Origin: a phage
Reading direction: 5' to 3' (one strand)
DNA: 64,000 bases
Sequence record: NC_101842.1
In this document: positions 15,226-35,880 of the stretch, in pieces
Numbering within the stretch: position 1 is the first letter of the stretch
Layout: each line of letters begins with the position of its first letter
Program-made: the position numbers and the translations under genes
Notes under the pieces: generated by a model
What the model was told of the DNA's origin: nothing
Databases searched by the model: none
What the model saw: the letters and a program-made list of their open reading frames with translations, nothing else

Positions 15226-15510
15226 CTACCAGGTTACTGTCAAGTAGGCAACCGTATTATTTTTCTCTGGGGAGATGCCAACAACATCTACCTGCAGACC
15301 TCCTGCCCTTAAATCTCCAACAATGTGCGGGAAGTAATCTGAGAGATGCGATGGTAGATTTATCGAAAATCCGCACCCCAGAAAGCCTGCTAACGCTTTA
15401 TTTTGTATCTCCCCTACAATCGCATCATAAATAGAGTTAAGCTCGTCAGGAAGCGTTACAGGACGTTTTAGCGCTAACTGGTGTAATTTGTCCTTAGCAC
15501 TCATTTTCAT
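15226..15510 (-). CDS. hypothetical protein (start refined to MKMSAKDKL, ATGA overlap with upstream stop)
   Basis: upstream gene ends at 15507, so start at 15510 is the first ATG compatible with coupling. Confidence 0.4.
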   Translation of the reverse strand: MKMSAKDKLHQLALKRPVTLPDELNSIYDAIVGEIQNKALAGFLGCGFSINLPSHLSDYFPHIVGDLRAGGLQVDVVGISPEKNNTVAYLTVTW

Positions 15511-16040
15511 TTCAGGTCTACCTCTGGAGGTGCCAACCACATAAATGGCGGCAAGTCTAAACGGTTTTTCTTATCCCAGACAAAATATGCATATGCTTGC
15601 CCGTCAGTTCTGCCATTTGATTGAAAAGATGGACGCTTAGATATTGTGATCACAGTGGTAGGTGCATTATCAAGCCACCATTCAAATCTGGCTTTGCTTT
15701 CCAGAAAATTAAGACGCAAAAGCATAATAACTACGTCAGCATCTTTCAACGCCTTGTCTACAAACTCACGAGCCAAACTGTATGGTGGGTTGGTGATAAT
15801 ACAGTCAACATGGTTGTATTCTGTATTCAGATAGTCAACACCTTCTTGGATTTCTCCCCATGCAGATCCTAACGGCATACGTGAGTAGAACACACCTGAG
15901 GCACTATTCCTGCAAGGCTCTAAATAGGTCCAGTCTTCTGGGAACGTAATAAGGTCATACAGCCCTTCTGCACACCACTCCGGTGTCACATACTCATCGT
16001 AAGCGTTACGTTGTTCATCAGGTTTTCTAGCACAAGTCAT
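15507..16040 (-). CDS. DNA N6-adenine methyltransferase (small, NPPY motif)
   Basis: YVTPEW, EPCRNSASG, IITNPPYS motifs. Confidence 0.6.
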   Translation of the reverse strand: MTCARKPDEQRNAYDEYVTPEWCAEGLYDLITFPEDWTYLEPCRNSASGVFYSRMPLGSAWGEIQEGVDYLNTEYNHVDCIITNPPYSLAREFVDKALKDADVVIMLLRLNFLESKARFEWWLDNAPTTVITISKRPSFQSNGRTDGQAYAYFVWDKKNRLDLPPFMWLAPPEVDLK

Positions 16041-16055
16041 GCAAATCTCCAGATC

Positions 16056-16081
16056 ATAAAAGCCCTCCGAAGAGGGCTTTA
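16056..16081 (-). terminator. intercistronic GC hairpin (aagccctc-cgaa-gagggctt)
   Basis: 8-bp stem, tetraloop, between ClpP-like gene and methyltransferase. Confidence 0.4.
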
Positions 16082-16091
16082 GAATTAATGT

Positions 16092-17138
16092 TTAAGCTTC
16101 TTCGACAATTCCTGCACCCAGGATTTTTTCATTGAGCTCTTTTGCTGTTTTAATAATATTGTCCACCAGACGCTTGCGAGTCTTATCTTTTACCTTAACC
16201 TCTTCACCGCCGTTCAGGGTTGTCTTCAATTGGGACAGAATGTCTTGAAGTTCAACGACAGAGAATCGCTGCAGATCTTCTGAGGTAATCTCACCTAAGG
16301 CAATCTTAATGGTCTCACCACTTTCCATCTGCAGATTTAGGAACACAGTGTGAACATCACCTTTCGAACCAACCGCTTTCGCAGATTCAACAGCATGAAC
16401 TAGCTCATCTAAAGAGGTGCACTGGTGAATCTCAGGAAGACCTGCTTCACCTAACACGCCTTCATCACCTTTTGCCAGAAGCTTTTTAGGTTTTTGTCCG
16501 TTCTGGATGCGCTGTATGTTACCTTCATCCAGAATGATGGCTCCAGTTCGAGCTGCCAGCTCCTCTCCGTCCAACCACACTTCACCACCAGCTGTGATGG
16601 ATGCGATCTCATCTTCTGTCAGCACCCCACCGTAGTATTTTTCGATCAGGCGTTCAAAACGTTTTTTCCAGTAGCTGACCTGAGTATTCATGTTCACACC
16701 GTTACCATAAGTGCCACCTTGATAGTAGTGGAACATAAATTCTGTGTCCGGAGCCACAGTGCGTTCTTTACAACCCAGCCATAAGATTGTTCCCGCAGAG
16801 CAGCACATCCCTTCAGCATGTGCAACAACGCTTGCCTGAGACTCGCGGAATGCCTGTAGATAAGCCATTGCAATGTGCACGCAACCACCAGGGCTATTGA
16901 TGATCACCCGAATGCTTTCTTCCGGCTGAGCCATACGGATCGTCTGCAGACGAGACATATGATCCTGCAGGTCTTCCAAATCGTCGATATAAAGAACGTG
17001 GTCAACAACAGGTGTTGGGTAGCTGTATGTTTCCATGATACCGCCCGGCATACCAAACATTTTATTACTCATAGGTTCGAAACCGTTCTGTTTTTCTTTC
17101 ATGCCGTGTACCATGGTGCTGCGAGGTGTTAAATTCAT
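16092..17138 (-). CDS. ClpP / S14-family serine peptidase homologue with about 150-aa C-terminal extension
   Basis: VIINSPGGCV...GMCCSAGTILWLG...FMFHYYQGG aligns with E. coli ClpP INSPGG...GQAASMGAFLL...VMIHQPLGG. Confidence 0.65.
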   Translation of the reverse strand: MNLTPRSTMVHGMKEKQNGFEPMSNKMFGMPGGIMETYSYPTPVVDHVLYIDDLEDLQDHMSRLQTIRMAQPEESIRVIINSPGGCVHIAMAYLQAFRESQASVVAHAEGMCCSAGTILWLGCKERTVAPDTEFMFHYYQGGTYGNGVNMNTQVSYWKKRFERLIEKYYGGVLTEDEIASITAGGEVWLDGEELAARTGAIILDEGNIQRIQNGQKPKKLLAKGDEGVLGEAGLPEIHQCTSLDELVHAVESAKAVGSKGDVHTVFLNLQMESGETIKIALGEITSEDLQRFSVVELQDILSQLKTTLNGGEEVKVKDKTRKRLVDNIIKTAKELNEKILGAGIVEEA

Positions 17139-17198
17139 GAGAAATCCTTAATATTGGAAGTTGAAAGCTATTTATTTAAACCTGATTCACATTTACCT

Positions 17199-17510
17199 TT
17201 ATTTAGCAATCACTATGGAATACTTACGATTGTCAGAAGCATCACAACTCAATGATTGCCAGTCTACCACATACCACGTATCATTGTCAACAATTACTTT
17301 ATCGCCTGTTCTGTAGCAGGTGCTGCTTTCAATAATTCGAGACTCGATAAAGAATCTGTGTCGGCGCTCACGTAGCAACGCTAAGTTGATTATATTACCA
17401 CCACTGTCCTTGATCCACACATTCTTGGATCCTTTATTTGCCAAAATTGTCTCACCGTTGTAGACGAACAGGCAGTATATTTTATTCAGTCTCTCTTGTA
17501 TTGTAGCCAT
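17199..17510 (-). CDS. hypothetical protein (103 aa, start refined to MATIQERL)
   Basis: aaggagaaggag RBS immediately upstream of internal ATG. Confidence 0.4.
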   Translation of the reverse strand: MATIQERLNKIYCLFVYNGETILANKGSKNVWIKDSGGNIINLALLRERRHRFFIESRIIESSTCYRTGDKVIVDNDTWYVVDWQSLSCDASDNRKYSIVIAK

Positions 17511-17614
17511 ACTATCTCCTTCTCCTTGTTTTGTCCGATGATAATATCTAAAGCTTACCTGTTTGTCAACAACTGTTTTAGATATTTTAAGGGTGGAATA
17601 ACCACCCTTCTGTA

Positions 17615-18403
17615 TTACTCGGAAACAGGGGTCCAAATATGATTTGCACGATCTTCAATAAGATTGAGTGCAATCTGACGACCCAACCCGGAACGAACGA
17701 CATCGTCTGGACTATCAAAGCTAATCATTCCAACCTCAGGATCTGGATGACGAGTAAAGAAATCCGTCACCCATGCGAGGCCAGATTTACCAGGGATGTC
17801 ACGTTGGCTATTATCACCCATAATTACAAGGGTGGCTTGATCAGAGATCCTTGTGATAATTGACAACATTTCTTCAGGGTTAGTTTGCTGTGCCTCGTCA
17901 ATCAGGACAAAGCATCGCTCATCGAAACTACGACCACGAATGCTTTCAACTTCACAAATCTCGATACGACTGTTCTGACCGTCTCCCAGCATTGCGGTAA
18001 AAGCACCTTTGCCAACACGACGACAAATCGTGTCCATCATGCTTCGAAGATAGGGCCACAGTTTCTGCATTGCATTTCCGGGTTTAAATCCTGAAGTCTT
18101 TCCTGTCTGGACGTAAGGACGTGCAACAATGATCTTATCAATCTCGTTCTTACGCAGAAGATCACCTGCATATGCAGATGCCATAAATGTCTTACCGGAT
18201 CCAAACACACCGTTTACAATAATAATCTTACGTGACCCTAGATAATCAAGATACTTTTGCTGCTTCTTATTCATTGGTCGGAGAGCTGGAGCGGTGTGCT
18301 CTCTTTCGTCAGCAAATTTCTCAGCAGCCTTACGCAGGCGATCAGATTTGCGAGCCTCTCTAGCTTCATCACGCATGCGTTTTGTTTCTTTAGCTCGACC
18401 CAT
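17615..18403 (-). CDS. phoH: PhoH-like ATPase
   Basis: Walker A GVFGSGKTF, LIDEAQ motif, PhoH-like length. Confidence 0.8.
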   Translation of the reverse strand: MGRAKETKRMRDEAREARKSDRLRKAAEKFADEREHTAPALRPMNKKQQKYLDYLGSRKIIIVNGVFGSGKTFMASAYAGDLLRKNEIDKIIVARPYVQTGKTSGFKPGNAMQKLWPYLRSMMDTICRRVGKGAFTAMLGDGQNSRIEICEVESIRGRSFDERCFVLIDEAQQTNPEEMLSIITRISDQATLVIMGDNSQRDIPGKSGLAWVTDFFTRHPDPEVGMISFDSPDDVVRSGLGRQIALNLIEDRANHIWTPVSE

Positions 18404-18441
18404 GTTGGGACTCCTTTCAGATTGAGATGTGCCAAGTACTT

Positions 18442-18792
18442 TTACTGCAACAGTTTTTCAATAGCCGCTTCCATGCTGCTTGCAACAGCCTGAACTCGGA
18501 TATTCATCTCTTCTTGGTGGATCAGCTCCTTAAGCTCTTTAATGGTAAATTCTTTAGAGAAACCTTCCACCATAATCTTGTGCAAGGCTTCTTGCGTGTC
18601 TACTTGCAAGAACTTTTCCAGTTTGTTGGCAGAGGCTTCTAAATCAGCCCGAATACGAGGGTCATCTGTGCGATTCAGCATTAGGCGTAAGCCATCAAGA
18701 TTAGTAGAAATAGCATCTGCATGTTGAGTAACTAACCGTGGCAAAATGAGATCTACAAACTTATTAGCCAAATCGATACGTTCTTGTGTCAC
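18442..18792 (-). CDS. hypothetical protein (GTG start)
   Basis: ORF track; small Lys-rich upstream ORF ends with GTGA overlap. Confidence 0.4.
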   Translation of the reverse strand: MTQERIDLANKFVDLILPRLVTQHADAISTNLDGLRLMLNRTDDPRIRADLEASANKLEKFLQVDTQEALHKIMVEGFSKEFTIKELKELIHQEEMNIRVQAVASSMEAAIEKLLQ

Positions 18793-18964
18793 TGTTGCAC
18801 CCCCTCTTCATCTTCATGATGTTTATTTTCACGCTTGTGTTTTTTCTTAAGCTCAAGCGCAATCTCTTTCTTGTACGCCTTCTTCAAGGCTTTTTTAGCC
18901 ATTTGGCACCTCCTCTGCTTTCATTACGACAATTATAACCGACTTAACAAAGCTTTGTCAACGA

Positions 18965-19438
18965 TTAGTCAACCTGAACCCAACCATCTGCTACCTTTTT
19001 AAACATTCTTTGGTTATCACTGCCTCTAAAGGGTTTTTTGGTGGGGTTATCTTTTTCGTACTTACCGTCCATAATGTAATCAACACTATCTTTAATGTAA
19101 TCGGGGACTTCTTCAAACAAATACCCTGTGTACACCCAGATAGTTTTTGTGTTGCCGAAGCGTTCACGGATAGCGCAAATGATTGAATACATACCATCAA
19201 TATTGTAAGGTGCTAAAGGCTCTCCACCGCATAATGTAACGCCGGTAATATGGTTTGGTTCTATAGAGCTAAGTATGCTCTCGATTGTGTCATTTGTTAA
19301 CGGTTCCCCTTTAGCGGGGGACCAAACACTTTTGTTTTGGCAACCGACGCAGTGATGTGGACAACCAGAACAGAACACCGTTGTCCTGATACCTGGGCCG
19401 TCAACCATGCTACACTCTATAATATTGACAACATTCAT
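18965..19438 (-). CDS. nrdG: anaerobic ribonucleotide reductase activating protein (radical SAM)
   Basis: Cys cluster FCSGCPHHCVGC near N-terminus; about 157 aa; adjacent to nrdD. Confidence 0.75.
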   Translation of the reverse strand: MNVVNIIECSMVDGPGIRTTVFCSGCPHHCVGCQNKSVWSPAKGEPLTNDTIESILSSIEPNHITGVTLCGGEPLAPYNIDGMYSIICAIRERFGNTKTIWVYTGYLFEEVPDYIKDSVDYIMDGKYEKDNPTKKPFRGSDNQRMFKKVADGWVQVD

Positions 19439-19671
19439 TCCTTACCCTCTTTGAGATAGGGATATTCAGGCCCACAATAAGCTCTATCTAAGAAAACAGC
19501 TTCTTCCCCTCTGGAATCAGTAGATCTATAATACCCATCACCCTGGTAACTAACGAACCAGTAGCACCCATCATTACTTTCTACTGTTGTGGCTCTGTCC
19601 GAATGAAAGATAATTTCGTAATCCTTACCGAATGTAAACCATCTGTTAGCTTTTACACAGACACCTATCAT
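19435..19671 (-). CDS. hypothetical protein (78 aa)
   Basis: ORF track; ATGA overlap with nrdG. Confidence 0.4.
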   Translation of the reverse strand: MIGVCVKANRWFTFGKDYEIIFHSDRATTVESNDGCYWFVSYQGDGYYRSTDSRGEEAVFLDRAYCGPEYPYLKEGKE

Positions 19672-19822
19672 AAGGAACCTCTCTTCTGTGGTGTGCTTCT
19701 ATTCAAGATAAACTTATAAAAGTCCATTTGATGAAGCCGTATAACTTTTTATACTTACGCTTCAGTGCTAACAATTTTATCTTGATTTTCTTGATAGATT
19801 TCCGCATTTCGACCCCTTATGC

Positions 19823-19939
19823 TTATAAGTACTCCGCATCGCATTCAGGGCAATGCCAAATAAAATCGTCCAGTGCCTTGCACCAACGAAGATTGCAATG
19901 ACAGCCGCACTTGCAAATTTTATAAATACCTGTAGACAT
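19823..19939 (-). CDS. putative 38-aa Cys-rich zinc-ribbon peptide
   Basis: hand-translated MSTGIYKICKCGCHCNLRWCKALDDFIWHCPECDAEYL; strong RBS aggaggtg; between nrdD and nrdG. Confidence 0.35.
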   Translation of the reverse strand: MSTGIYKICKCGCHCNLRWCKALDDFIWHCPECDAEYL

Positions 19940-20008
19940 ACTGCACCTCCTACTCCTAGCTCACTGTGTGTCAATAATATGCCACATCCTTGTGGCTTTT
20001 GTCAAGTA

Positions 20009-22132
20009 TCAGCAACCACAACTTCCGTAGTGCTTAACTCGCTCGATAACTTCCGCTTGCTTACCTTTATTGTAAGGACGAGAGTTAGGACTGGAAAGGT
20101 ATCCAGACACACGTCGAATTACGCTGATCGTTCCCTCTTCATGGTTTCCACACTCTGGGCATACAAAGCCTTTAGCTGTTGCACTGAACTCACCAGAGAA
20201 ACCACACTTGAGACATTTATCCACAGGCTGGTTGATACCAAAATACATAATGTGTTTATATCCGAAATCAACAAGAGCTTCCAAAGCATCTAAGTTGTTT
20301 TTCAGATTTGGTGTCTCTACGTATCCGATGTTGCCACCAGAGGAGATCATAGCAAAACCTTCCTCATACTCCCACTTATCAAAAGGAGAGCTATTGATCC
20401 ATACTGGCTGATGGAAACTGTTGGTGAGATATTCATGCTCGTGCTTCAACACTTCAGGATATTCACGATCCAGACAGGTTGCAGCTTTATAGCATAGACT
20501 CTCAGAAGGGGTGCCGTACAAGCTAAACGCTAGTCTACTTTCCTTCTTGTATCTCTCACAAGCATCTCTCATGTGCTGAAGTATTCCAAGAGCTAAAGCC
20601 TTGTCACCCTCCCTGCCCAAAATCTGACAGGTTTCATACACACCAATATACCCAATACTGATGGAAGCGTACCCGTCGTAGAAGAGTTTATCAATACTCT
20701 CTTCAGGGTCCAGGCGAGCAAGAGCGCCTTCACACCACATGATAGGGTTCTGCCCTGCCTTTGTCCCTTTTAGACGATTAACCCTTACAAGGTGAGCCTC
20801 GTATGCAAGATCCAGGTATTCGTCAAGAACTGCAAAGAAATCAACACCTTCCGTTTTAGCTTTTGCCGCAATCATTGGCAGATTAAGGCTAACAACGCCT
20901 AAGTTAAATCTGCCAAGGTATTTCTCCTCGCCTGTTTCCAAGTCATTGTATTTGCTAAGAAAACTCCGGCAACCCATGCTCGTTACTTTACCATCTGTCG
21001 AGCCTGTCACTTTACGATTTAGTGGAACAGAAACAAAGTCAGGATAAATCCGCTCTGCAGAGCATTCCAGAGCTAATCGTTTCAAATCATAGTTAGGATC
21101 TCCAGGGTTCATGTTGACACCCTCTTCTAGGAAGAACAACACTTTAGGGAACACAGGTGTGATACGTTCTTCACCAAGACCCATTTTGTGGACTTTCAAG
21201 TAGTTTTTGGTAATCATTCTACCAAAGACTGAGGTGTCCAGACCTAAACTTAATGTGATGAATGGGGTTTGCCCGTTGACAGAAGTTAACGTATTGATTT
21301 GATAGAGTAAAGTCTGCATGCTGTCAAATACGTCTTTATCTGTCATCTGCATTGCAACAGTCTCAGCATCTGGCAACCAATGTTCCTGGCAAAATTTAAG
21401 GTTCTTCTCATAAGTCGCCTCAGCATACTGTGCCAGATAATGATCAATATGGCTCATAGTCTGACCCCCATATTGAGCACTAGCTACCGCACTAGAGATT
21501 TGGCTAAGGATTGTTGTTGCAACCCCTATTGACTTCGGCTTACTGACATGGGCGTTACCAATGTTGAATCCGTTTTCCAACATATCTGGATAATTTACCA
21601 AACAACAGTTTGTTAACGGACTGATCAAGTAGTCAAGATCATGCACATGGATGAAGCCTTTATTGTGCTCTTCTGAGACACGGTCTGGCAGGATCTGTGT
21701 TGATGCAAGGTGTTTGCTAAGGATGCCTGCAAGCAGGTCACGATGAGTGTGTACATGATTGGTAGGCTTATTTGCGTTTTCTTTTGTAAATTCATCACAA
21801 GTTCGATCCAAGAAGCCACTAATATCTGCAAGCAGTTTTCCACCTGCCTCTCTGTTATTATCTCTTGTCTGTCTATACTGGATGTATTCTCTGGCTGCAC
21901 ATTTTAAACCCATATCCATAAGAGCATCTTCAACAAGGATATGGATATTTTTTACAGAGATCGTGCACTGGTCGGTTGGTAGATTGTTAGCAACAACTTC
22001 ATTAACCGCACAAGCGATCCGGTAAGCTTCTTCTTCAGTATGTCCAGACTCAAGTAAGGCGGACTCTGCCGCCTTGATCACCTTAATTCCGTTATAGAAC
22101 TCTTCTCTACCGTCCCGTTTTACAACTTTCAC
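20009..22132 (-). CDS. nrdD: anaerobic ribonucleoside-triphosphate reductase (class III)
   Basis: N-terminal ATP-cone (MKVVKRDG), C-terminal glycyl-radical motif RRVSGY and Cys zinc ribbon; 707 aa. Confidence 0.85.
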   Translation of the reverse strand: MKVVKRDGREEFYNGIKVIKAAESALLESGHTEEEAYRIACAVNEVVANNLPTDQCTISVKNIHILVEDALMDMGLKCAAREYIQYRQTRDNNREAGGKLLADISGFLDRTCDEFTKENANKPTNHVHTHRDLLAGILSKHLASTQILPDRVSEEHNKGFIHVHDLDYLISPLTNCCLVNYPDMLENGFNIGNAHVSKPKSIGVATTILSQISSAVASAQYGGQTMSHIDHYLAQYAEATYEKNLKFCQEHWLPDAETVAMQMTDKDVFDSMQTLLYQINTLTSVNGQTPFITLSLGLDTSVFGRMITKNYLKVHKMGLGEERITPVFPKVLFFLEEGVNMNPGDPNYDLKRLALECSAERIYPDFVSVPLNRKVTGSTDGKVTSMGCRSFLSKYNDLETGEEKYLGRFNLGVVSLNLPMIAAKAKTEGVDFFAVLDEYLDLAYEAHLVRVNRLKGTKAGQNPIMWCEGALARLDPEESIDKLFYDGYASISIGYIGVYETCQILGREGDKALALGILQHMRDACERYKKESRLAFSLYGTPSESLCYKAATCLDREYPEVLKHEHEYLTNSFHQPVWINSSPFDKWEYEEGFAMISSGGNIGYVETPNLKNNLDALEALVDFGYKHIMYFGINQPVDKCLKCGFSGEFSATAKGFVCPECGNHEEGTISVIRRVSGYLSSPNSRPYNKGKQAEVIERVKHYGSCGC

Positions 22133-22407
22133 TTTTTCTCTCCAAAACCATTCTTAACAAAAGAGATGAAATCGTCGGCACCGCCTATATGGATACTGTC
22201 AAGATCGCTTTCTAAGAAGATCTGCGGCAACGTTCTGGGGACGATTGGACTACACTTCTCAATAAGCTCTTCTTTTGTGTATCCCTCGCCAAGTGTCTTA
22301 TATACAAAAGGCAGACCTTTGCTGATTGCAAATTCTTTTGCTCTGACACAATGTGGGCAGTTATCCTTACCGTAAATGATGATGAAAAAAGATTTTTCGC
22401 AGCTCAT
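22129..22407 (-). CDS. glutaredoxin-like redoxin (CPHC)
   Basis: NCPHCVRAKEF, TLPQIF, HIGGADDF resemble T4 NrdC-type redoxin. Confidence 0.75.
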   Translation of the reverse strand: MSCEKSFFIIIYGKDNCPHCVRAKEFAISKGLPFVYKTLGEGYTKEELIEKCSPIVPRTLPQIFLESDLDSIHIGGADDFISFVKNGFGEKK

Positions 22408-22410
22408 ATA

Positions 22411-23499
22411 TTAAAACTCCCAAATTTCTTCTTCAGCGTCGTTAACAGTTGTGTTGACGCGGTAGTCAGTGTTCGACATTTCTTGGTTCGCCGTCTGTTG
22501 CAATGAAGGTTTCATCCACACCTGCATAAACGGTAGCGGGTCCTTTGTTGGCGGCACAAAGTCTTTGTCGATGTCGTAGTAATCATAAATCGGTGAACAG
22601 TTATAGTCAACCCATTCTTTAAGCAACGGTGAGTTAAGACCTATAATCGCTCTTCCTTCGCTGAAAATATAGTCACTCCAACCGTACTCTTTGGTTCGTA
22701 CTTCATCAAGAATCTCTTTTAACTCCCCTTTTATCTCCAGGAAGCTTTTCTCCCATGCGGGATCGTTAAGCAAGATATCAATGATGGCAAAATCACCTTT
22801 CGAATGTAGCATTTCGTCAAGCATGATTTTTTGAACAAGCTGCGCCACCTGAACAAAAATACCCTGTTCAGCTACTGCGAAAGTGCATGCAAAACTTGCA
22901 ATAAACTCAATACTTTCCAGGGCTAAAAGTGCAAAAAGCGCTCTAAGAATGCATTTCCGCACAATATCTTCTTCAACACTAGAAGGATCCAGTCGGTATT
23001 TTGCACCAATAACCTCAAGCTCTTGCATGTATTTGACAATAACGCCAGATCTGCTCAGAACGTTTTGGTTTTCCTGAATCTCTTCTATAATCTCACGGGC
23101 ATTGGGGAGGCATTGTCTAACAATCTCTGAGTAAGTTAGTGCGTGAAGAACTTCAATCTCTGACTGTTTCATCAATAGAGTGAAAAGCTCACTATTAGTG
23201 ATGAATGGTGAAAAGAGGCAGATGATCGATCTTGCCGCAACGCTATCAGCCTCCCATTGCCACATCAAGGTCTGCACCATCACGTCATAAGTTGACTTTG
23301 AGCATGTTACAAAATCTGAAATAGATTGCGACAAATCCACTTCATCCTCTGCCCAATCTTGCTCTTTTTGTTTTTTGTATAGTTCAAACAGTTGTGGATA
23401 TTTTTTGTTGATAGAGTCGTACATACCCATTTGCTGTCCCAGAAACAGCGGATAGTCACCAGTTTTATGAGCGGTGTTCTCAGCATTAAATACAGCCAT
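22411..23499 (-). CDS. nrdB: ribonucleotide reductase class Ia beta subunit
   Basis: ferritin-like R2 pattern; start refined to MAVFNAENT at RBS. Confidence 0.8.
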   Translation of the reverse strand: MAVFNAENTAHKTGDYPLFLGQQMGMYDSINKKYPQLFELYKKQKEQDWAEDEVDLSQSISDFVTCSKSTYDVMVQTLMWQWEADSVAARSIICLFSPFITNSELFTLLMKQSEIEVLHALTYSEIVRQCLPNAREIIEEIQENQNVLSRSGVIVKYMQELEVIGAKYRLDPSSVEEDIVRKCILRALFALLALESIEFIASFACTFAVAEQGIFVQVAQLVQKIMLDEMLHSKGDFAIIDILLNDPAWEKSFLEIKGELKEILDEVRTKEYGWSDYIFSEGRAIIGLNSPLLKEWVDYNCSPIYDYYDIDKDFVPPTKDPLPFMQVWMKPSLQQTANQEMSNTDYRVNTTVNDAEEEIWEF

Positions 23500-23537
23500 T
23501 ATTCTACCTCTAAAATGGGGCCGAAGCCCCTTTAAAA

Positions 23538-26080: not shown

Positions 26081-26090
26081 CTTCACCACC

Positions 26091-26564: not shown

Positions 26565-26650
26565 TTCTGGCTCACCAACAAAGTGAGCCATTATTATAGA
26601 TTATCTAATACTATTAGTCAACACAAAAGTTACCTATCGCTGTGATAGGA

Positions 26651-27634: not shown

Positions 27635-27834
27635 TATTTAGCTCTCCTTGTTTTAATTTTGGAAATTTCGTCTGGGTTTATGTTGGCCTTAAATGCAAGG
27701 TATCTGTTGAACATATCGGAGCACATGTCTTGGGTGATCCTGGAGGCATACACCAGCTTACCTCCCAGATCATACACCTCTAGCCAGTCACCGTATCTGA
27801 CTACAGGATCGCCACCTTTAGAACATCTGCCCAT
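27634..27834 (-). CDS. hypothetical small protein (66 aa)
   Basis: ORF track. Confidence 0.4.
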   Translation of the reverse strand: MGRCSKGGDPVVRYGDWLEVYDLGGKLVYASRITQDMCSDMFNRYLAFKANINPDEISKIKTRRAK

Positions 27835-27835
27835 T

Positions 27836-28429: not shown

Positions 28430-29040
28430 TCTTCTTGGGCCTCTTTAGCATCAATATACTTGCACACAATCTCCGATGCACATTCCCAAGGTGCACCTTC
28501 AGGGTTTACAACATCGAACTCAATTCCTTTTATTCCGTTCTTTTCCAGACTTAGATAGGTTCTGGAATCATTTCCCCAGTCATATCCGACACGGTGAATA
28601 CGGAACAACAACAGATCTCCACCTGTGCTGTACGCGTACTCGCTAAGGCATGCCAGCTCCTCTTTGAATCCACCATCGGAGTAAACAACAACCCCTTTAC
28701 CTTTAGGGAAATCTTTCTTCAAAGATGCGACTGCGGCTTTACCGAAAGCATCTTCACCAAAGATAGGTTTAATCAGATTTTCACTACAATGGATCATCCA
28801 TTCTCGCGGAGAAACATGCTTGCCGTCTATCATTAAGAAAGGGCAAGGCTCTTCTTTGTAGTGGCGGTCATAAAGTGCATTCCAGAGTTGAGGAGTTACA
28901 CCAGCTGCCTTAATTGCCACACTGAAGAGCATCTCCTTAACCTCACGGTGGTGTGAGTTAGGAATAGCTTCCAACAAGAGATCTGCAATGTGATCCTTAC
29001 CACTGCTGGGTGGGGCGTTAAGAACAATAATATCCATCAA
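28423..29040 (-). CDS. P-loop nucleotide kinase, dNMP-kinase-like
   Basis: N-terminal LNAPPSSGKD P-loop as in T4 gp1 (SGVKRSGKD). Confidence 0.5.
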   Translation of the reverse strand: MMDIIVLNAPPSSGKDHIADLLLEAIPNSHHREVKEMLFSVAIKAAGVTPQLWNALYDRHYKEEPCPFLMIDGKHVSPREWMIHCSENLIKPIFGEDAFGKAAVASLKKDFPKGKGVVVYSDGGFKEELACLSEYAYSTGGDLLLFRIHRVGYDWGNDSRTYLSLEKNGIKGIEFDVVNPEGAPWECASEIVCKYIDAKEAQEEC

Positions 29041-29240
29041 AAACCTCCGTGGTATTCTTCAACTGCATCAATAATACTTTTACACTTATCTACCAGCTCG
29101 TTAGCCACTACAGCATCGTCTTCCCAAACAGCTTCCTCGATCTGATCAAGCAATGATCGCATCTTACCCATCATTTCTGGGATAAAGTCTTCTGAAAAGC
29201 TGTCTGGAATTGTTAACTTTAGTGTCATTGCGTTCTCCAA
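29037..29240 (-). CDS. hypothetical small acidic protein (67 aa)
   Basis: ORF track. Confidence 0.4.
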   Translation of the reverse strand: MENAMTLKLTIPDSFSEDFIPEMMGKMRSLLDQIEEAVWEDDAVVANELVDKCKSIIDAVEEYHGGF

Positions 29241-29255
29241 TCATACTATGCGTTA

Positions 29256-29714
29256 TTAGAAGTTTGTTTTTACACGTCCCTTTTCATCAACCTCGTTGTT
29301 GGCTAGAAGCGTTACAAAGTCTGTGAAACGGACATGAAGAACTCTTTTCTTATCAAGGTATCCTAAAGCCACCCCTGAGAAATTTAGCATCAAAGGGGCT
29401 AAAGAAGCTCTGGCACTGAAATGCTGTTGTTCTACCCTTCCAACACCCTTAGTGTAGGATGGGTTAAGATTGTAAGTTCTGAATCCCAGTTTTGTTGGAG
29501 CTTTAGAATTAAAAACAACTTTATAGCGTTTCTTACTCAACTTATGCTCCAGGATAAGCATTCCCTTATCACCCTTGATAAGTTGAAAATCTGTAAAGTG
29601 CTCTTTTAATACGAAAGGTAGTGCCAGTCCCATCGCCTGCCCCCTTTGTACCGCTGTCTCACCAAAAGCTTTTGCATCAGTAAGTTCTTTGGTCAAGTCT
29701 ATGCTTTTGATCAT
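29256..29714 (-). CDS. hypothetical protein (152 aa)
   Basis: ORF track; start may be internal. Confidence 0.4.
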   Translation of the reverse strand: MIKSIDLTKELTDAKAFGETAVQRGQAMGLALPFVLKEHFTDFQLIKGDKGMLILEHKLSKKRYKVVFNSKAPTKLGFRTYNLNPSYTKGVGRVEQQHFSARASLAPLMLNFSGVALGYLDKKRVLHVRFTDFVTLLANNEVDEKGRVKTNF

Positions 29715-30525
29715 ACCTAGTCTCCAAAATGTATTGTAGTTCTTTCTTACCTATACTCTTCATTCCGGCAGTCTTACCTGCTTCTTCTTGAAAAGAAGAA
29801 TAGCATTCAGCAAACACTCTGTCAACACCGTCAACTAAAGATTTTATGAAATATGTTGATTCTTCAGATTTTGGGTCATCCTCCCCCAATACTTTTCCAG
29901 CATTATACCCAACACGTCTTACACAGAAGTCGTAGTCATCTGGAGTGCTAAAAGAAAATAACTTATTCTCCCCAATCTCTACAGGATCCCTGTTGCACGC
30001 CTTTTTCTCCCAAATTTGGAAAACACACGGCACGTCATAAGGTTTGCCATTAAGTAGAAACGAGTTCTTAGGGCACCTTTCACTGTAGACAAGGTGCATC
30101 GACATGTCCAGTTTGTTTGCAAAAAATATTTTTTCAAATGTCCGTGGCAAGATGAAGGCTATAGCCCCTCCAAGCTCTAGCAATGATGCACAATGGTTAA
30201 AGAATTTGCAAGCTAAAGATGAATTCTTGCCAAATGGTGGGTTACCTATGAAGACATCTGCCTTGGGATGCACCTCCAAGAAGTTTGCCTGAATGCACGG
30301 TGTTGGTCCTTCAAATTCAGGATCTGGTACTAGATCGTAAGACAGTATCTCTGAAAATAGTTTTGAAAAAGAACCCCTTCCAGCAGAAGGCTCAACGTAT
30401 GCACAATTTCCATACTTATCTTTTACTTTACCAACAAGATATTCTGCATACTCAGGGTTTGTGTAATATTTGTCGTTGGACTCTTTCTTGCTCAAAGTGC
30501 CTCCAAAAGGAAAAGGGAGGCGCAA
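29677..30525 (-). CDS. DNA N6-adenine methyltransferase (second)
   Basis: YYTNPEYAEY, VEPSAGRGSF, FIGNPPFG motifs. Confidence 0.7.
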   Translation of the reverse strand: MRLPFPFGGTLSKKESNDKYYTNPEYAEYLVGKVKDKYGNCAYVEPSAGRGSFSKLFSEILSYDLVPDPEFEGPTPCIQANFLEVHPKADVFIGNPPFGKNSSLACKFFNHCASLLELGGAIAFILPRTFEKIFFANKLDMSMHLVYSERCPKNSFLLNGKPYDVPCVFQIWEKKACNRDPVEIGENKLFSFSTPDDYDFCVRRVGYNAGKVLGEDDPKSEESTYFIKSLVDGVDRVFAECYSSFQEEAGKTAGMKSIGKKELQYILETRYDQKHRLDQRTY

Positions 30526-30541
30526 GCCTCCCTATACTTGA

Positions 30542-31531
30542 TTAGATTATCTGAATCAGGGTGTTTTTCATTTCTTCTCTGGTACGGATGTTGTTACGGT
30601 CACGAACAACAGATCCACAACCTTCGCAGCGATATGTTTTAAATGCACTCAGTTGAGTATACGCCAAAGCTTCTTCCTCGTGAAGGTGTTCTCCACCGCA
30701 GCGTGGGCAACGAACTTTTGGCTCCTCATCCTGGTAGTACAATGACATGTTGGGGTGCTGCTTAGCAAACGGGCGTGCCAGCAAATACAGGCCTTCCAGA
30801 GATAGGATATCACCAACATTGTACTCCCGCATCTGTTTAAACGCCTCAAGATCACCATGAACACACTTGATCCACATTTCAAATGTGTGGTCAATCAGTT
30901 TCTGTCGGGCAAGTTGGAAGTATTTGCATGCATACTCCAAAGTGTTTGCATTCAAACGGAATGCCTTCTTGATCATTTTAAGGGTGTCAACCTCTTTGTA
31001 TGGGCTTGTTGGAGGCAACCCGTGAAATGCAAATCGTTGGTTTGCCCACCCACAGTCAAAACCTGAATTGTGGGCTACTGCGACATCACATTTATCCAGA
31101 TAATACCACAAGTCCTGAATCAATTCGAGGTCATTGTGAATATCCTCATCCCACATTTTGTAATCGGGAAGAGCGCAGTCAACCACACTAGGACTGTCTA
31201 ACCACTTACCTGCGAAAGTTAGCATATAGGGCATAATTTCAATACCGCAGGTTTGAATGTTGGTCTTATAGTGCCCAAAGAACCAGCCGTTTGTTGGTGA
31301 TGTTTCTGTATCATACACCCAAACTTTAGCTCCTTTGTGTTCTTCAAGGAAGCGCTCCGTTGCTTCTCCTACAATCTCTGACATATTCTCTTGTGCACGT
31401 TTAAGCTGTAGTCGGATCCAACTCTCACGTGACTCACGGCCTAAAAATTCACGAGCAATTTGTCTATTAGTGTATCCCTGCTGCTTTAGTGTTAAAATTT
31501 GCTCAAGAGTTAACTTTGTCATCATCGTCAA
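30542..31531 (-). CDS. DEDD-type 3'-5' exonuclease with N-terminal HTH and C-terminal Cys4 zinc ribbon
   Basis: VWVYDTETS, HNSGFD, CPRCGG...CEGCG. Confidence 0.5.
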   Translation of the reverse strand: MTMMTKLTLEQILTLKQQGYTNRQIAREFLGRESRESWIRLQLKRAQENMSEIVGEATERFLEEHKGAKVWVYDTETSPTNGWFFGHYKTNIQTCGIEIMPYMLTFAGKWLDSPSVVDCALPDYKMWDEDIHNDLELIQDLWYYLDKCDVAVAHNSGFDCGWANQRFAFHGLPPTSPYKEVDTLKMIKKAFRLNANTLEYACKYFQLARQKLIDHTFEMWIKCVHGDLEAFKQMREYNVGDILSLEGLYLLARPFAKQHPNMSLYYQDEEPKVRCPRCGGEHLHEEEALAYTQLSAFKTYRCEGCGSVVRDRNNIRTREEMKNTLIQII

Positions 31532-31537
31532 AATTCC

Positions 31538-31759
31538 TTAGTAAAACTGAAGAATGTCTTTTAAAGCGAAGTCACGATATTCGCCCTTGTCTACATCAAA
31601 GGCATGCATCAACCACTGCTCTTCTTTATGATACTCTGTAGAGCCAAACCATAAATTAGGCTCAGTAACGCAGCGATCTGCAACAACACCTTTCCAGTTA
31701 CGGTATTTCATCCTGATCAGGACTGAGTCGCAAGGATTGAATACCTTTTTCATCCCCAT
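31538..31759 (-). CDS. hypothetical small protein (73 aa)
   Basis: ORF track. Confidence 0.35.
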   Translation of the reverse strand: MGMKKVFNPCDSVLIRMKYRNWKGVVADRCVTEPNLWFGSTEYHKEEQWLMHAFDVDKGEYRDFALKDILQFY

Positions 31760-32303
31760 AGAAATCTCTCTCCTCAGTTTTCTTTATAAACTCCTGCATG
31801 TAGGACTCAATAGCCTCATGCTTGGTGCACTCTGGATTAATGACAAGATTGAGATCTGATTCTGCTCGTGCAATAATCGTAGCTTTAGAGCATCTCCTCA
31901 AGAACTTTGTCATATCATCTCTGTAGTTTTTGTGGAGCGGGAAGTCGCTGTAGTCTTTCTCCAGATAGTCAGCCATCCGGCGCAACGCCTCTGATAAACT
32001 GCAATCTGTATACTCGTTACAGTATTTCATCCAGTATTTAAGCACATACCCCTCAAAGGTATTAGTGCACTGAGACAAAACACCCCTGCAACGACCAGTC
32101 AGATGATCATGATCTAAACAAGGCTTACGAAGTGGCTCGCACAAGATCGGATCAAGACCATCCTGCTCCTCTGACAATTCTTTTCGAAAGTTGGCTATGT
32201 CCTTAGAATCTTTTAGCCACCCGCTATGAACGGGGGCTTTGACAGCTTTCTTTCTTATTTTACGCTTTGCGATAACCCCTCCAGATGCGCCCTGCCTATC
32301 CAA
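31698..32303 (-). CDS. recombination endonuclease VII-like Holliday junction resolvase
   Basis: CLDHDHLTGRCRGVLSQCTNTFEG matches T4 endonuclease VII HLDHDH...RGLLCNLCN core; start uncertain. Confidence 0.65.
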   Translation of the reverse strand: MDRQGASGGVIAKRKIRKKAVKAPVHSGWLKDSKDIANFRKELSEEQDGLDPILCEPLRKPCLDHDHLTGRCRGVLSQCTNTFEGYVLKYWMKYCNEYTDCSLSEALRRMADYLEKDYSDFPLHKNYRDDMTKFLRRCSKATIIARAESDLNLVINPECTKHEAIESYMQEFIKKTEERDFYGDEKGIQSLRLSPDQDEIP

Positions 32304-32884
32304 TAAGCATCTGCGAGATCGGCCTTACCTTGTACCAAATTGATCCCATCTAGGAACCCAGGTTCAGATACTTCGCAGGCCTTAACCATCAACTTTTTAT
32401 CCATCGTAACAGGTTTCTTCACAGTATGCTCTTTACCTGTCTTTTTGTCAAGCTTTTTCTTCTCCTCAAAAGCAAGTTCCTCAGGAAGATGACTACGAGC
32501 AAACTTTTTGGCAGTTGTTGGTGTCACGGTGTGGACCTTAAACAGGCCGTCATTTTCACAATCAGCTAAAGCATCCCAAAGCATAACTTCAAGACCGTAA
32601 AACAACCCAGCCAGTTCGCGTGTGGCATCCCCGCGTGATCCAAAGGAAAGCCCTTCCATAACCACGGTGTCAACGCCGTGCGTGTGGATGTAATATCTGA
32701 CCTGTTTGCAGATCCAGTCAATACGCTCAGCAGCTGTTGCAAAAGAAACCGTCCCTGGTTTCTTCTCTTTTGCAGATGAGCTTTGAGTTCGTAACACAAC
32801 CTTATGAACAGGCTTTCCATCGTCCCATACAACGCAAGCTGTGTGTGTCAACGACTGGTCTATGGATAATAGACGCTCTCTCAT
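32255..32884 (-). CDS. RuvC-like resolvase (RNase H fold)
   Basis: LSIDQSLTHTACVV, MEGLSF, ADLADAYWIG parallel RuvC motifs. Confidence 0.5.
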   Translation of the reverse strand: MRERLLSIDQSLTHTACVVWDDGKPVHKVVLRTQSSSAKEKKPGTVSFATAAERIDWICKQVRYYIHTHGVDTVVMEGLSFGSRGDATRELAGLFYGLEVMLWDALADCENDGLFKVHTVTPTTAKKFARSHLPEELAFEEKKKLDKKTGKEHTVKKPVTMDKKLMVKACEVSEPGFLDGINLVQGKADLADAYWIGRAHLEGLSQSVK

Positions 32885-33213
32885 GCTTCCTCGTCCTCCT
32901 CTCCTTCATCAGGAGCATAAGCCTTATCTTTGAACAAGACGAGAGAGCAAAGCTTAACATCTGTTTCCACACTGGTGAACATGCATAACCGCTCGCCCTC
33001 AATCAGCTCACAATCCTCTTTTAAAACAGCAGACCATACACGGTCATCTGCGTAATCATCCGTGTACAGGATGTATGAAATGGTGTCATCTTCATACAAC
33101 CGCCACATACCTGTGGCAACAACGAATGTATTTTTTGTTTTAAGTGTCCCTGTTGTGTGATCATCCTCAAAAACAGCTTCCATAATTGCGTTATCTACAG
33201 CATTTTTAGTCAT
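32881..33213 (-). CDS. hypothetical acidic protein (110 aa)
   Basis: ORF track. Confidence 0.45.
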   Translation of the reverse strand: MTKNAVDNAIMEAVFEDDHTTGTLKTKNTFVVATGMWRLYEDDTISYILYTDDYADDRVWSAVLKEDCELIEGERLCMFTSVETDVKLCSLVLFKDKAYAPDEGEEDEEA

Positions 33214-34352
33214 CAGATTGCTCCAACATTTCTAAGAACGTTAACAAGTTTTGTCTGGTCATTAAATGTCCGCTTCATATACAAACAGTCAAAAATTATA
33301 CTCATCCATTGACCTACGGAAATTCTACGATCAATACCATTGAAGTCAGTATACTTAACAACACCTTTCGGGAACCACTTCTTGTACTGATCAATAATAG
33401 CCACCCACATCTCCTTTGGAGTGCTGCACTGAGACAGTAGGTAGAATGCTGAGGCATCCCCGAACTTACCCTTACCGATAAGTCCTTGATACGGCTTGAT
33501 GTTGTCAGCAGAGTCACCACACAGCATTTGGTATCCGAAGAACAGCATACCGTAACCGCCAACCTCTCCATTAGGCTTCATGAAGATGTTCCCCATACCG
33601 TTATCGATCAGCATAGGGGTTTCCCTTACAAAATCTCCCTTATCGTTTCGCATGGGATCGAACACAAGCCCCGGTAGTGTTCTTTGGTCCTTATCAATAG
33701 AGATAATAAACTTGTTGAACTTACCTGTTTTTTGGTAGTGGTTCCAACCTTCAAATTGCTGGATAGCTAACCAGTCGTCAGCCTCGATACCGTTGATCAC
33801 TTGAGCATTGTACTGCTTTTGGAGATACTGTCTTGCATCTCCAAGCAGCAGTGGTCGAAGAGTATTGTTACGGTTGGCTTTATATCTTTCCGGCATGGGA
33901 AGATCTAGTCTGAAATTACCTGTGCCTCCAAGTACCCCCACGCACCGATCTTCCGGAATACCGAGATAATTAAGGACTGCATTAGCTTTACACTTAATTG
34001 TGTGCAAGCAGTTCTCTACAGGATCAGGGGTTTGGATATCCAAGACATCGAAATCTTCTCGTGTCCACGGAATAAACTCCTTGCCAGCCTTTTTACATGC
34101 AGCTTCACGGTTGGTATTCTCAGCTTTTAACCAACCACCAACGGTGTTCTTCTGCCGCCCCCAGAACTCTGTTCGTGTTTTAAACATCTTCTTACGTCCG
34201 GAGGCTTTGTGTGTTACCTCAATTGTCCTTTTTTCACAACTTGCTGCAGCTTGATATGCAACCTGATCGAAGTCATAATAAACTATAGCGTCAGGTTCAA
34301 GAAGATCAGCTAGACAATCTATGGACTCAATAAGTGGATATTCTCTACTCAA
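33213..34352 (-). CDS. 5'-3' exonuclease / flap endonuclease-like nuclease
   Basis: GIEADDWLA, ISIDKDQ, CGDSADNIKPYQGLIGKG resemble T5 D15 / T4 RNase H motifs. Confidence 0.55.
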   Translation of the reverse strand: MSREYPLIESIDCLADLLEPDAIVYYDFDQVAYQAAASCEKRTIEVTHKASGRKKMFKTRTEFWGRQKNTVGGWLKAENTNREAACKKAGKEFIPWTREDFDVLDIQTPDPVENCLHTIKCKANAVLNYLGIPEDRCVGVLGGTGNFRLDLPMPERYKANRNNTLRPLLLGDARQYLQKQYNAQVINGIEADDWLAIQQFEGWNHYQKTGKFNKFIISIDKDQRTLPGLVFDPMRNDKGDFVRETPMLIDNGMGNIFMKPNGEVGGYGMLFFGYQMLCGDSADNIKPYQGLIGKGKFGDASAFYLLSQCSTPKEMWVAIIDQYKKWFPKGVVKYTDFNGIDRRISVGQWMSIIFDCLYMKRTFNDQTKLVNVLRNVGAI

Positions 34353-34653
34353 AGACCCTCCTGTTAGTTATTCTGCAAGATGGTTGGATGCTGTAATGAA
34401 ATGCATCATCACTCTCTGCAATAAGTGACTCAACATCCCAATACTTTTCAAAAAGGAACGGATTAGACCCCCAGTGGTGGGTTATTTTCATCAATGAGTC
34501 TGGTAGCAGATAGCCACAGATCTTAATTACATCACCAGGTTGAATTGTGTTTTCATAGAGGTTGCTTTCCTTCTTCAGAATAATACCTTTATGATTCTCG
34601 TTTGCATACAACTGGACAATATCTTTATCTTCAACAATAAAAATTTTAAGCAT
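34345..34653 (-). CDS. hypothetical protein (102 aa)
   Basis: ORF track; promoter with overlapping palindrome upstream. Confidence 0.45.
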   Translation of the reverse strand: MLKIFIVEDKDIVQLYANENHKGIILKKESNLYENTIQPGDVIKICGYLLPDSLMKITHHWGSNPFLFEKYWDVESLIAESDDAFHYSIQPSCRITNRRVFE

Positions 34654-34683
34654 GTCTAGTTCTCCTAGTTTATAAATATCTGA

Positions 34684-34716
34684 CTGATAATATCAGATTA
34701 ATAACACTTTTGTCAA
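34684..34716 (-). promoter_or_regulatory. minus-strand promoter (TTGACA-17-ATATTA) overlapped by palindrome CTGATA-A-TATCAG
   Basis: rc of 34711-34716 is TTGACA; 13-bp palindrome at 34684-34696 covers the -10 region. Confidence 0.4.
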
Positions 34717-35009
34717 GACTTTTTAGTCTTTCTTGGAGAGCTTTTTGTTGATCTTTTCCTTTTGTGGTAGATTCCAAGTGCAGCGTTTTCTTGGGCGCAC
34801 GTTTTAACAGTTCTCAGAGAAGAACTTTCAGCTTTAGGCAGGTTTAACTCCCACCAACCGAGCCAGTAAAGTTCTGATTCCGACAGCTGCTCAGATTCAG
34901 CCTTCCGATACAATGATTGCATACCTCTAATGATGTCGTCCAGAGGTGTATCGAATACAAAAGCTGTCTTATCAAATTTCTCTTTTACAGGTTTCTTAGC
35001 CATGCTCAC
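34713..35009 (-). CDS. hypothetical basic protein (98 aa)
   Basis: ORF track. Confidence 0.45.
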   Translation of the reverse strand: MSMAKKPVKEKFDKTAFVFDTPLDDIIRGMQSLYRKAESEQLSESELYWLGWWELNLPKAESSSLRTVKTCAQENAALGIYHKRKRSTKSSPRKTKKS

Positions 35010-35880
35010 CTCTCACACAATCATCCACTGACTTCATAAACTCTTGCACCCAAAGTGCCCCTATTTGAGGAACTATGGCGTTACCGAAGCCTTTGTGGCG
35101 AGACAATCCCATTGGGGTGGATAGCCCATCAACCAACAAGGGAATGCCGGGTTCAGGAAGTTTACGCCATTTTCCGTCTCGGCATAGATACTGTCTTGTA
35201 TGCTCCCACACCCGTAATACATCCTCACCTGCTCCCACAGATTCCCAGGACTTAATGACTTCCTGCCAGTTGCTAAGCGTTGTTGCTTGCGCCTTTCCAT
35301 CGCTTCCTGAGATCTGCACCCTACCTGAGTTACCGTAGGGGTTAACCACGTTGCTAACTGCCCCGAAGTAAAGTCGTTCGCGGCGGTGCGGGGCGTTGAG
35401 GATTGCAGCATTAAGTATGGAAGCCCCGAAGCTGTAACCAGCGTTTTCCATTTCATTCTGCATATCGTCGAGCCATCCGGATTCAATCGCTTTTGCAACC
35501 TGCTCTCCAAACATGAACTCAGGTTTAAGCTGTTTAACGAGCCGGAGGTATGTTGGTGCAAGATGTCTTGGGTCAAATTTTCCACGTTGCTTACCTGCTT
35601 GAGAGAAAGGTTGGCAGCACGGAGATCCTGTGCATACCGACCAAGTTTCTGGAATGCCAGCAAGTTTCAAGGCCAAAGGCCATCCACCTATGCCAGCGAA
35701 GAAGTGCCACTGTGTGAAACCTCTAAGATCTTCTACAGTAACCTCTGTAATAGAACGATCATCCACCTCGCCTTGAGGAAGTAGTCCTAAAGATATTAGA
35801 TTCTTCAACCAAGCAACTGCATCTTTATCATTGTCATTGTAGTATACCACACTTAATTCTCCAAATACTGATGTATCCAA
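34996..35880 (-). CDS. DNA cytosine-5 methyltransferase
   Basis: motif I FAGIGG, motif IV GSPCCQPFS, ENV-like FGEQV, HRRERLY, GFGNAIVPQ. Confidence 0.8.
   Translation of the reverse strand: MDTSVFGELSVVYYNDNDKDAVAWLKNLISLGLLPQGEVDDRSITEVTVEDLRGFTQWHFFAGIGGWPLALKLAGIPETWSVCTGSPCCQPFSQAGKQRGKFDPRHLAPTYLRLVKQLKPEFMFGEQVAKAIESGWLDDMQNEMENAGYSFGASILNAAILNAPHRRERLYFGAVSNVVNPYGNSGRVQISGSDGKAQATTLSNWQEVIKSWESVGAGEDVLRVWEHTRQYLCRDGKWRKLPEPGIPLLVDGLSTPMGLSRHKGFGNAIVPQIGALWVQEFMKSVDDCVRGEHG

Follow-up and report, generated by a model that had tools for sequence, protein, structure and literature searches.

INTRODUCTION

Multiple orphan methyltransferases are common in phages, and the described system closest to the one considered here is that of phage Bas51 (WalterGehring, MZ501111). 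Mutants of Bas51 that escape two retrons have been isolated, and the substitutions D69G, D79G and T83P, when engineered into its protein bas51_0176, abolish retron defence (PLoS Biol 2025, PMC12548924). This protein, the trigger of retron-Asa1/Squ1, is toxic in Escherichia coli, and nanopore sequencing of Bas51 revealed N6-methyladenine (m6A) at GATC, a mark that is gone in the T83P mutant (PMC12548924). The source data of the same paper count 1405 methylated GATC adenines in wild-type Bas51 versus 35 in T83P, and 509 and 511 methylated GTAC adenines, respectively; for the latter the paper names no gene (PMC12548924). The BASEL study, on the other side, described the Vequintavirinae as 'exceptionally susceptible' to restriction-modification (R-M) and seemingly without effective protection. 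The present analysis concerns three DNA methyltransferase genes found in a stretch of 64,000 nucleotides of a phage (sequence record NC_101842.1), called the window hereafter, to which all positions refer unless another record is named. A reading made from the sequence alone had taken the joint presence of two N6-adenine enzymes and one cytosine-5 enzyme as a sign of broad self-protection against restriction systems, or of epigenetic control. Our analysis leads to a more restricted interpretation: the three are probably orphan methyltransferases that each mark one short sequence and provide narrow, site-specific modification, not a general anti-restriction shield.

RESULTS

The phage and its three methyltransferase genes

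The 21.5-kb region that holds the three genes matches CarlMeissner (Bas48, MZ501054) and vB_EcoM_HdK5 at 99.9% identity from one end to the other, and more than 100 further Vequintavirus (rV5-like) genomes at 97-99%; Bas51 is 97% identical over the methyltransferase region. The window is that of a Vequintavirus, an rV5-like E. coli myovirus. In the GenBank record of CarlMeissner, bas48_0176 and bas48_0198 are annotated as 'putative N6 adenine methyltransferase' and bas48_0207 as 'putative C5-cytosine-methyltransferase'.

The motifs quoted in the sequence-only reading were all found: ITNPPYS in 15507-16040, VEPSAGRGSF and GNPPFG in 29677-30525, and FFAGIGGW and GSPCCQPFS in 34996-35880. The corresponding open reading frames (ORFs) are all present on the minus strand, but 30525 and 35880 are the ends of maximal ORFs; the true starts lie at 30495 (TTG, 272 amino acids) and 35850 (GTG, 284 amino acids), where Shine-Dalgarno sequences, family alignments and GenBank annotation agree. 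Motifs, profile matches and predicted folds back the proposed division into two chemistries, with two enzymes of the N6-adenine type and one of the C5-cytosine type. No further (D/N/S)PP(Y/F) candidate emerged when the ORFs of the window were all scanned for motifs; the 99.9%-identical genome, however, has two more methyltransferase-like genes beyond the window, and three is thus too low a count for the phage.

The 177-aa enzyme and GATC methylation

The first gene (15507..16040, minus strand; Shine-Dalgarno GGAG before ATG) encodes a minimal N6-adenine methyltransferase of 177 amino acids (aa), which matches phrog_799 (E 1.7e-66) and displays motifs X (DEYVTPEW), I (LEPCRNSASG) and IV (NPPY, residues 84-87). 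It is identical to bas51_0176 at 175 of the 177 residues, the differences being T32P and V174A, and D69, D79 and T83 are conserved, T83 standing directly before NPPY. By our own count on the translation, positions 69, 79 and 83 of the 272-aa protein are occupied by Q, A and I. Since the three residues are present in the 177-aa protein alone, and since the Bas51 copy is nearly identical to it, the 177-aa protein corresponds to the GATC enzyme. The Bas51 genome contains 703 GATC sites, i.e. 1406 adenines; with 1405 of them methylated in the wild type and 35 in T83P, in a host that has Dam, GATC methylation is essentially complete and depends nearly entirely on the phage enzyme. By orthology, the enzyme of the window should methylate GATC on both strands, and it is likely to be a retron trigger in this phage too. 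Methylation-aware sequencing of virion DNA had been suggested as a check of the sequence-only reading, and the Bas51 data show that such methylation is real, with m6A at both GATC and GTAC.

About 117 phage records carry the gene at an identity of at least 95%, and relatives at 47-65% occur in phi92-like phages, Phapecoctavirus, Klebsiella and Cronobacter phages and other large myoviruses. The protein does not belong to the phage Dam family as defined by PF05869 (19.2 bits for a cutoff of 28.1) or TIGR01712 (16 bits for a cutoff of 97), and a sequence search of solved structures gave no meaningful match. It shares with the 272-aa protein an X-I-IV core composed of DxYxTP, EPxxxxG and NPP(Y/F) (hhalign probability 93%, E 3.2e-7).

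A putative glycosidase gene (13749-14273, minus strand), which corresponds to bas51_0171, lies ~1.2 kb downstream of this gene. A premature stop in bas51_0171 likewise abolished retron-Asa1 defence (PMC12548924).

The 272-aa enzyme and its probable role in GTAC methylation

The second gene (29677..30495, minus strand; Shine-Dalgarno GGAGG before TTG) encodes a protein that matches phrog_5172 (E 2.5e-129) and, end to end, the PADLOC Type II methyltransferase profile PDLC03255 (E 1.3e-33). We found 791 homologs, in which EPxxGxGxF and GNPPFG are invariant; across 55 homologs the invariant residues are E35, P36, G39, G41 and F43, and G84, N85, P86, P87 and F88. The catalytic NPPF occupies residues 85-88, and the motifs follow the order X, I, IV of the gamma class. 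The sequence has no detectable match to any solved structure. The AlphaFold2 model (predicted local distance difference test score, pLDDT, 92.8) has a Rossmann-type methyltransferase fold and finds its best Foldseek matches in TrmN, at the top, M.TaqI (E ~2e-7), the Type I M subunit StySJI, M.BseCI and CamA, on which the N-terminal ~170-200 residues superpose. We conclude with high confidence that this is a gamma-class, Type-II-like adenine methyltransferase.

The Bas51 genome has 258 GTAC sites, i.e. 516 adenines. Because 511 of the 516 remain methylated in T83P, a second, independent activity must fully methylate GTAC. To our knowledge, E. coli K-12 possesses no GTAC methyltransferase, which points to an enzyme encoded by the phage. 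We infer that the 272-aa enzyme, rather than any other phage product, makes the GTAC m6A seen in Bas51, an assignment that we favour with some reserve and weigh in the Discussion.

In the phage, the gene is not part of a Type II R-M pair: its neighbours encode a DnaQ-like exonuclease and a hypothetical protein. Bacterial relatives were examined in the top 80 loci of a genome scan, which come from Sphingomonas, Rhodobacterales and others, with no Helicobacter among them. In 21 of these 80 loci an ORF of ~217 codons lies within ~16 bp downstream of the homolog; its product matches the PADLOC REase_II profile PDLC03460 (E 5e-15) and has an FDI…D…PTSIK motif, while single-sequence and profile searches gave no Pfam, NCBIfam or PDB match. 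It probably represents, judging from this profile, an uncharacterised family of restriction endonucleases. The recurrence of a nuclease-like partner indicates that the 272-aa family comes from genuine Type II systems and that the phage copy is an orphan. An attempt to identify the partner as a known GTAC nuclease such as PabI was given up; the sole match is to a generic Type II endonuclease profile and no specificity can therefore be transferred. An attempt to recognise GTAC as the site of the bacterial pair through its avoidance was also dropped, the observed/expected ratio in the bacterial loci being 0.81 with the nuclease and 0.92 without, a difference too small for the site to be identified. 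As a remote possibility, an uncharacterised GTAC-type Type II R-M family could be defined by the 272-aa enzyme together with the ~217-aa bacterial partner.

Restriction and site content

In the raw data of the BASEL study, CarlMeissner plates with an efficiency of ~4e-4 to 1e-3 on EcoRI and forms no plaques on EcoRV; the values are 0.02-0.09 on EcoCFT_II, 0.09-0.56 on EcoP1 and ~0.5-0.9 on EcoKI. The window contains 12 GAATTC and 19 GATATC sites. GTAC is its most depleted 4-bp palindrome, with 104 occurrences for 200 expected under a Markov model; GATC is not depleted (335 for 333 expected, a ratio of 1.01). GGTACC is found 4 times and CGATCG once.

The C5 enzyme: motifs and their order

The third gene (34996..35850, minus strand, GTG start) encodes a 284-aa protein that matches phrog_363 (E 4.3e-60). 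PF00145 scores 73.3 bits (cutoff 22) against the maximal ORF, although it aligns residues 80-177 only. Motifs IV (GSPCCQPFS), VI (FGEQV), VIII (HRRERLYF) and X (GFGNAIVPQ) can be recognised; in motif VI the Glu is invariant and the Asn of ENV is replaced by Gln family-wide. Cys79, Glu116, Arg157, Arg159 and GNAIVP are intact, and Cys79-Gln80 is invariant in the family. The catalytic domain of the predicted model is confident, the short target-recognition region is of low confidence, and the nearest folds are M.HhaI, Dnmt2 and M.HaeIII. The degree of conservation suggests that the protein is an active C5-cytosine methyltransferase.

Two positions set this enzyme apart from its family. At position 6, in a motif II-like NEWD element, it has Asp in place of the Glu shared by 54 of 54 family members (E6D); at position 78 it has Cys where 54 of 54 relatives have Pro (P78C). 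The second change turns PPCQ, the canonical form in the family, into PCCQ and places the Pro-Cys pair one residue earlier (P77-C78). Thus PCCQ, which had been read as a C5 motif, does include the catalytic Cys79 but is a variant. Both substitutions are also present in an 80%-identical relative, against which the ratio of nonsynonymous to synonymous substitution rates (dN/dS) is 0.21; the gene is therefore maintained by purifying selection.

The canonical order of motifs, I through X, was not found in this enzyme. Motif I (FAGIGG) is only ~20 residues ahead of motif IV, and the family profile aligns with M.HhaI in two pieces, HhaI 2-33 (motif I) and 69-171 (motifs IV-VIII), skipping residues 34-68 (motifs II-III), which have no counterpart between them. 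For the N-terminal 42 residues a strand-helix-strand unit is predicted. Moving the motif I block ahead of these residues raised the score of PF00145 from 73.0 to 97.1 bits and made the match contiguous. Nine shuffles of the 42 residues gave 73.2-82.5 bits, a reversed segment 76.1 and a deletion 73.6, so that the gain from re-ordering is +24 bits versus about +4 for shuffled controls; two other members of the family behaved in the same way. A pairwise Smith-Waterman comparison of the N-terminus with E. coli Dcm was not significant. From the split match to M.HhaI and the gain in score we deduce the order II-III, I, IV-X, which appears to hold for the whole family (PHROG 363, with over 5000 homologs that all bear the label of ordinary cytosine methylases). 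Because of this rearrangement, standard profiles align only motifs IV-VIII and miss the N-terminal third.

Distribution and locus of the C5 gene

At the DNA level, the C5 gene was found in 3 of 50,697 phage records, all 100% identical (HdK5, CarlMeissner and vB_Eco_Alma), and the next protein relatives after these phages are at most 55% identical. The 80%-identical relative mentioned above lies on a distant Vequintavirinae-like metagenomic contig, at the same position in the order HNH gene, methyltransferase gene, 5'-exonuclease gene. Bas51 and rV5 are without the C5 gene, which accounts for the 96% versus 100% coverage among the genomes matching the window. The gene is missing from most of the genus, and cannot therefore be part of a conserved strategy.

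In a comparison with the Bas51 locus (L002), 34600-35002 of the window aligns at 96% and 35874-36100 at 93%, with nothing between. Hence a segment of ~870 bp (35003..35873), made of the C5 gene and the last six codons of the HNH gene, has no counterpart in Bas51. It corresponds to a clean indel between a small hypothetical gene and the HNH gene, and it also swaps these six codons, the HNH protein ending in …SWIHQYLEN in the window and in …SWIEGYLDG in Bas51. The idea that the C5 gene had been split by insertion of a homing endonuclease was rejected, as the whole family begins at the same N-terminus.

The HNH gene itself (35853-36299, minus strand), directly upstream of the C5 gene, is kept in Bas51 without a methyltransferase there, and a 57%-identical copy stands at the same locus in a distant relative. 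It resembles a mobile homing endonuclease less than it does a fixed core gene. In the BASEL table it is the sole homing endonuclease counted for CarlMeissner. Its retention in phages without the methyltransferase led us to reject it as a restriction partner of the C5 enzyme.

Further methyltransferase genes and other observations

The two additional genes are located outside the window. One (bas48_0070/bas51_0070; 64234-65559 in MZ501054 and 14456-15781 in the Bas51 locus L004) encodes an orphan protein of 441 aa with PF01555, a PADLOC MTase_III match (PDLC03636, E 1.5e-205), DPPF and FGGSG motifs, and Mod subunits as nearest structures. It is unambiguously a Type III Mod-like enzyme and is the only other adenine-methyltransferase candidate in the genome. 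The T83P mutant of Bas51 keeps 349 'other' m6A sites (PMC12548924), which could belong to this enzyme. The second gene (66820-67584 in MZ501054; 17042-17806 in L004) encodes a 254-aa 'Dcm-like' protein with FDGSGG, PPCT and ENP motifs, which no Pfam or PADLOC model matched. This brings the genome total to five methyltransferase-like genes.

The minus-strand surroundings of the three genes of the window encode ClpP, PhoH, ribonucleotide reductases, thymidylate synthase, exonucleases and a ligase. Among them, nrdD (20009-21919, minus strand) is uninterrupted. The Bas51 nrdD (6489-10226 in L002) is annotated in two pieces, with one homing endonuclease gene inside and a second one beside it; the content in homing endonucleases varies widely across the genus. 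We also noted about 20 public records (MG0656xx) named 'Campylobacter phage' that are 98-99% identical to E. coli Vequintaviruses and are probably mislabelled or contaminant assemblies.

DISCUSSION

What could be the use of such a set of enzymes? In the scheme that we favour, three orphan methyltransferases dependent on S-adenosylmethionine (AdoMet), deprived of any partner nuclease, would act on replicating phage DNA. The 177-aa, Dam-like enzyme would mark GATC on both strands; the 272-aa enzyme, whose bacterial relatives sit in Type II R-M pairs, would most likely be responsible for the complete GTAC m6A; and the 284-aa enzyme, present in only three sequenced phages, would, if its conservation is a guide, carry out C5 methylation. 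The modification would protect against nucleases whose sites contain GATC or GTAC and have to be unmethylated, and nicking by MutH at unmethylated GATC may be avoided too. The GATC enzyme, which would also be sensed by retron defence systems, is at the same time a liability, as it exposes the phage to retron-based abortive defence.

Several points weigh against this scheme. The two adenine enzymes fall below every Pfam and NCBIfam threshold, with sub-threshold matches only. GTAC was assigned to the 272-aa enzyme by exclusion, with the 441-aa Mod-like enzyme as an alternative, and an N4-methylcytosine next to the adenine of GTAC might, in principle, be mistaken for 6mA in nanopore calling. JGI gives the name 'predicted RNA methylase' to some of the homologs of the 272-aa protein, whose single best fold match is a tRNA methyltransferase, TrmN. 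As to the C5 enzyme, E6D and P78C, which alter residues shared by 54 of 54 relatives, could reduce its activity or modify it; the sole published methylome is that of Bas51, which lacks the gene.

The initial idea that the three enzymes jointly confer broad protection against host restriction systems has some arguments in its favour: more sites are covered by three specificities than by a single one, the close relative Bas51 shows full methylation of GATC and GTAC, and the depletion of GTAC fits past selection by GTAC-cutting nucleases. However, CarlMeissner, which has all these genes, is strongly restricted by EcoRI and EcoRV, and also by EcoCFT_II; the BASEL authors regard these phages as lacking effective R-M protection, and nearly all Vequintaviruses lack the C5 gene. 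Protection limited to sites containing GATC, GTAC or the C5 motif is not broad. For the systems tested, broad protection is thus largely refuted, and we consider it very improbable. A main role other than anti-restriction is conceivable, although we hold it to be the lesser possibility: full methylation of the fast-replicating phage DNA would serve to escape MutH/mismatch-repair nicking at unmethylated GATC, or in the timing of packaging or expression. Phage P1 uses Dam methylation for packaging, which offers a precedent. Moreover, GATC is not avoided in the window, and the drop from 1405 to 35 methylated GATC adenines in virion DNA upon loss of the phage enzyme means that the host Dam cannot keep up. 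However, escape mutants without the enzyme formed plaques and propagated (PMC12548924), so that such a role would not be essential in the laboratory. Narrow, site-specific modification remains in our opinion the better description.

Two further alternatives concern individual enzymes. GTAC methylation might be due to the 441-aa Mod-like protein, the 272-aa enzyme then having another DNA motif (among the 'other' m6A sites) or an RNA target. The strong PF01555/Type III Mod match, with its DPPF and FGGSG motifs, the 349 m6A sites left in T83P, which suggest that at least one more activity may exist, and the RNA-related fold match and labels of the 272-aa family go in this direction. But the typical targets of Type III Mod enzymes are asymmetric sites of 5-6 bp, in which a single strand is methylated, and GTAC, a 4-bp palindrome, carries the mark on both strands (509 of 516 adenines), a pattern that therefore suits the 272-aa enzyme better. 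The latter's family also matches, along its whole length, a Type II methyltransferase profile derived from REBASE, and the endonuclease-like gene that follows 21 of 80 bacterial homologs is the signature of a DNA enzyme. By our own arithmetic, a 5-bp asymmetric motif is expected ~275 times in a 140-kb genome, so the ~349 residual sites suit a motif of that kind. All this makes the exchange of roles unlikely, and leaves the 272-aa protein as our preferred GTAC enzyme. The other alternative is that the accessory C5 enzyme is catalytically impaired, or performs a chemistry other than simple 5-methylation, through its altered cofactor and catalytic motifs. E6D in the NEWD element and the change from Pro-Cys to Cys-Cys could be so interpreted, given the invariance of both positions elsewhere; 8yf3, a natural C5-carboxymethyltransferase using carboxy-S-adenosylmethionine (Cx-SAM), is among the structural and sequence neighbours; and the gene is dispensable for the genus. 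Against this, the sharing of both substitutions with the 80%-identical relative, together with the dN/dS value, argues for a maintained, working enzyme, the residues Cys79, Glu116, Arg157 and Arg159 and the GNAIVP motif are intact, and nothing points specifically to another cofactor. We judge this alternative improbable, and more doubtful still the specific proposal that the CarlMeissner/HdK5/Alma subclade has an altered cofactor pocket, a non-methyl product, or unusual kinetics or specificity.

The presence of three methyltransferases is in itself an ordinary finding, which public annotation already contains and published experiments partly cover; papers on Druantia, Zorya and Certrevirus yielded nothing specific to these genes. 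What is new is the connection of the Bas51 methylome with individual genes, the probable assignment of GTAC, the rarity and unusual motifs of the C5 enzyme, and the total of five genes. The published GATC and GTAC methylome of Bas51 is thereby tied to specific genes across the genus. The number of methyltransferase genes appears as a poor predictor of restriction resistance, which matters for the choice of therapeutic phages, and an undescribed motif rearrangement is flagged in a widespread family of C5-methyltransferases.

Comparison with known methyltransferases

The 177-aa enzyme and bas51_0176 occupy the same genomic position, beside a ClpP-like protease gene. With the Dam enzymes of E. 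coli and T4 the 177-aa enzyme has in common the product, m6A at GATC, and the orphan status. It differs from these alpha-class enzymes by its gamma-type motif order X, I, IV, by its size, ~100 aa shorter, and by having no obvious separate target-recognition domain.

For the 272-aa enzyme, M.HpyAXII of Helicobacter pylori is a useful reference: a weakly conserved gamma-class enzyme, it makes GTm6AC, blocks RsaI and has its catalytic Asn at residue 87; the equivalent Asn of the phage enzyme is residue 85. With the M.TaqI-type gamma enzymes the phage protein shares the fold and the succession of EPxxGxGxF and NPPF; it differs from them by a small C-terminal domain of ~100 aa without structural match, and by the lack of a partner nuclease in the phage.

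The C5 enzyme resembles the M.HhaI-type methyltransferases in motifs I, IV, VI, VIII and X, the catalytic Cys and the fold, and departs from them by a II-III segment that is N-terminal to motif I, by Cys-Cys in place of Pro-Cys and by Asp in place of the motif II Glu. In a 2018 survey, the only natural exceptions to the canonical order among C5 methyltransferases were circular permutations with motifs IX-X first; that survey looked solely for cases in which motif X comes before motif I. A non-circular exchange of II-III and I was found described nowhere in the literature that we searched. M.BssHII, M.Alw26I, M2.Eco31I, M.Esp3I and M2.BsaI are likewise exceptions to the canonical order, but in these enzymes motifs IX-X precede I-VIII, a circular permutation, whereas in the phage C5 enzyme it is the II-III and I blocks that are swapped.

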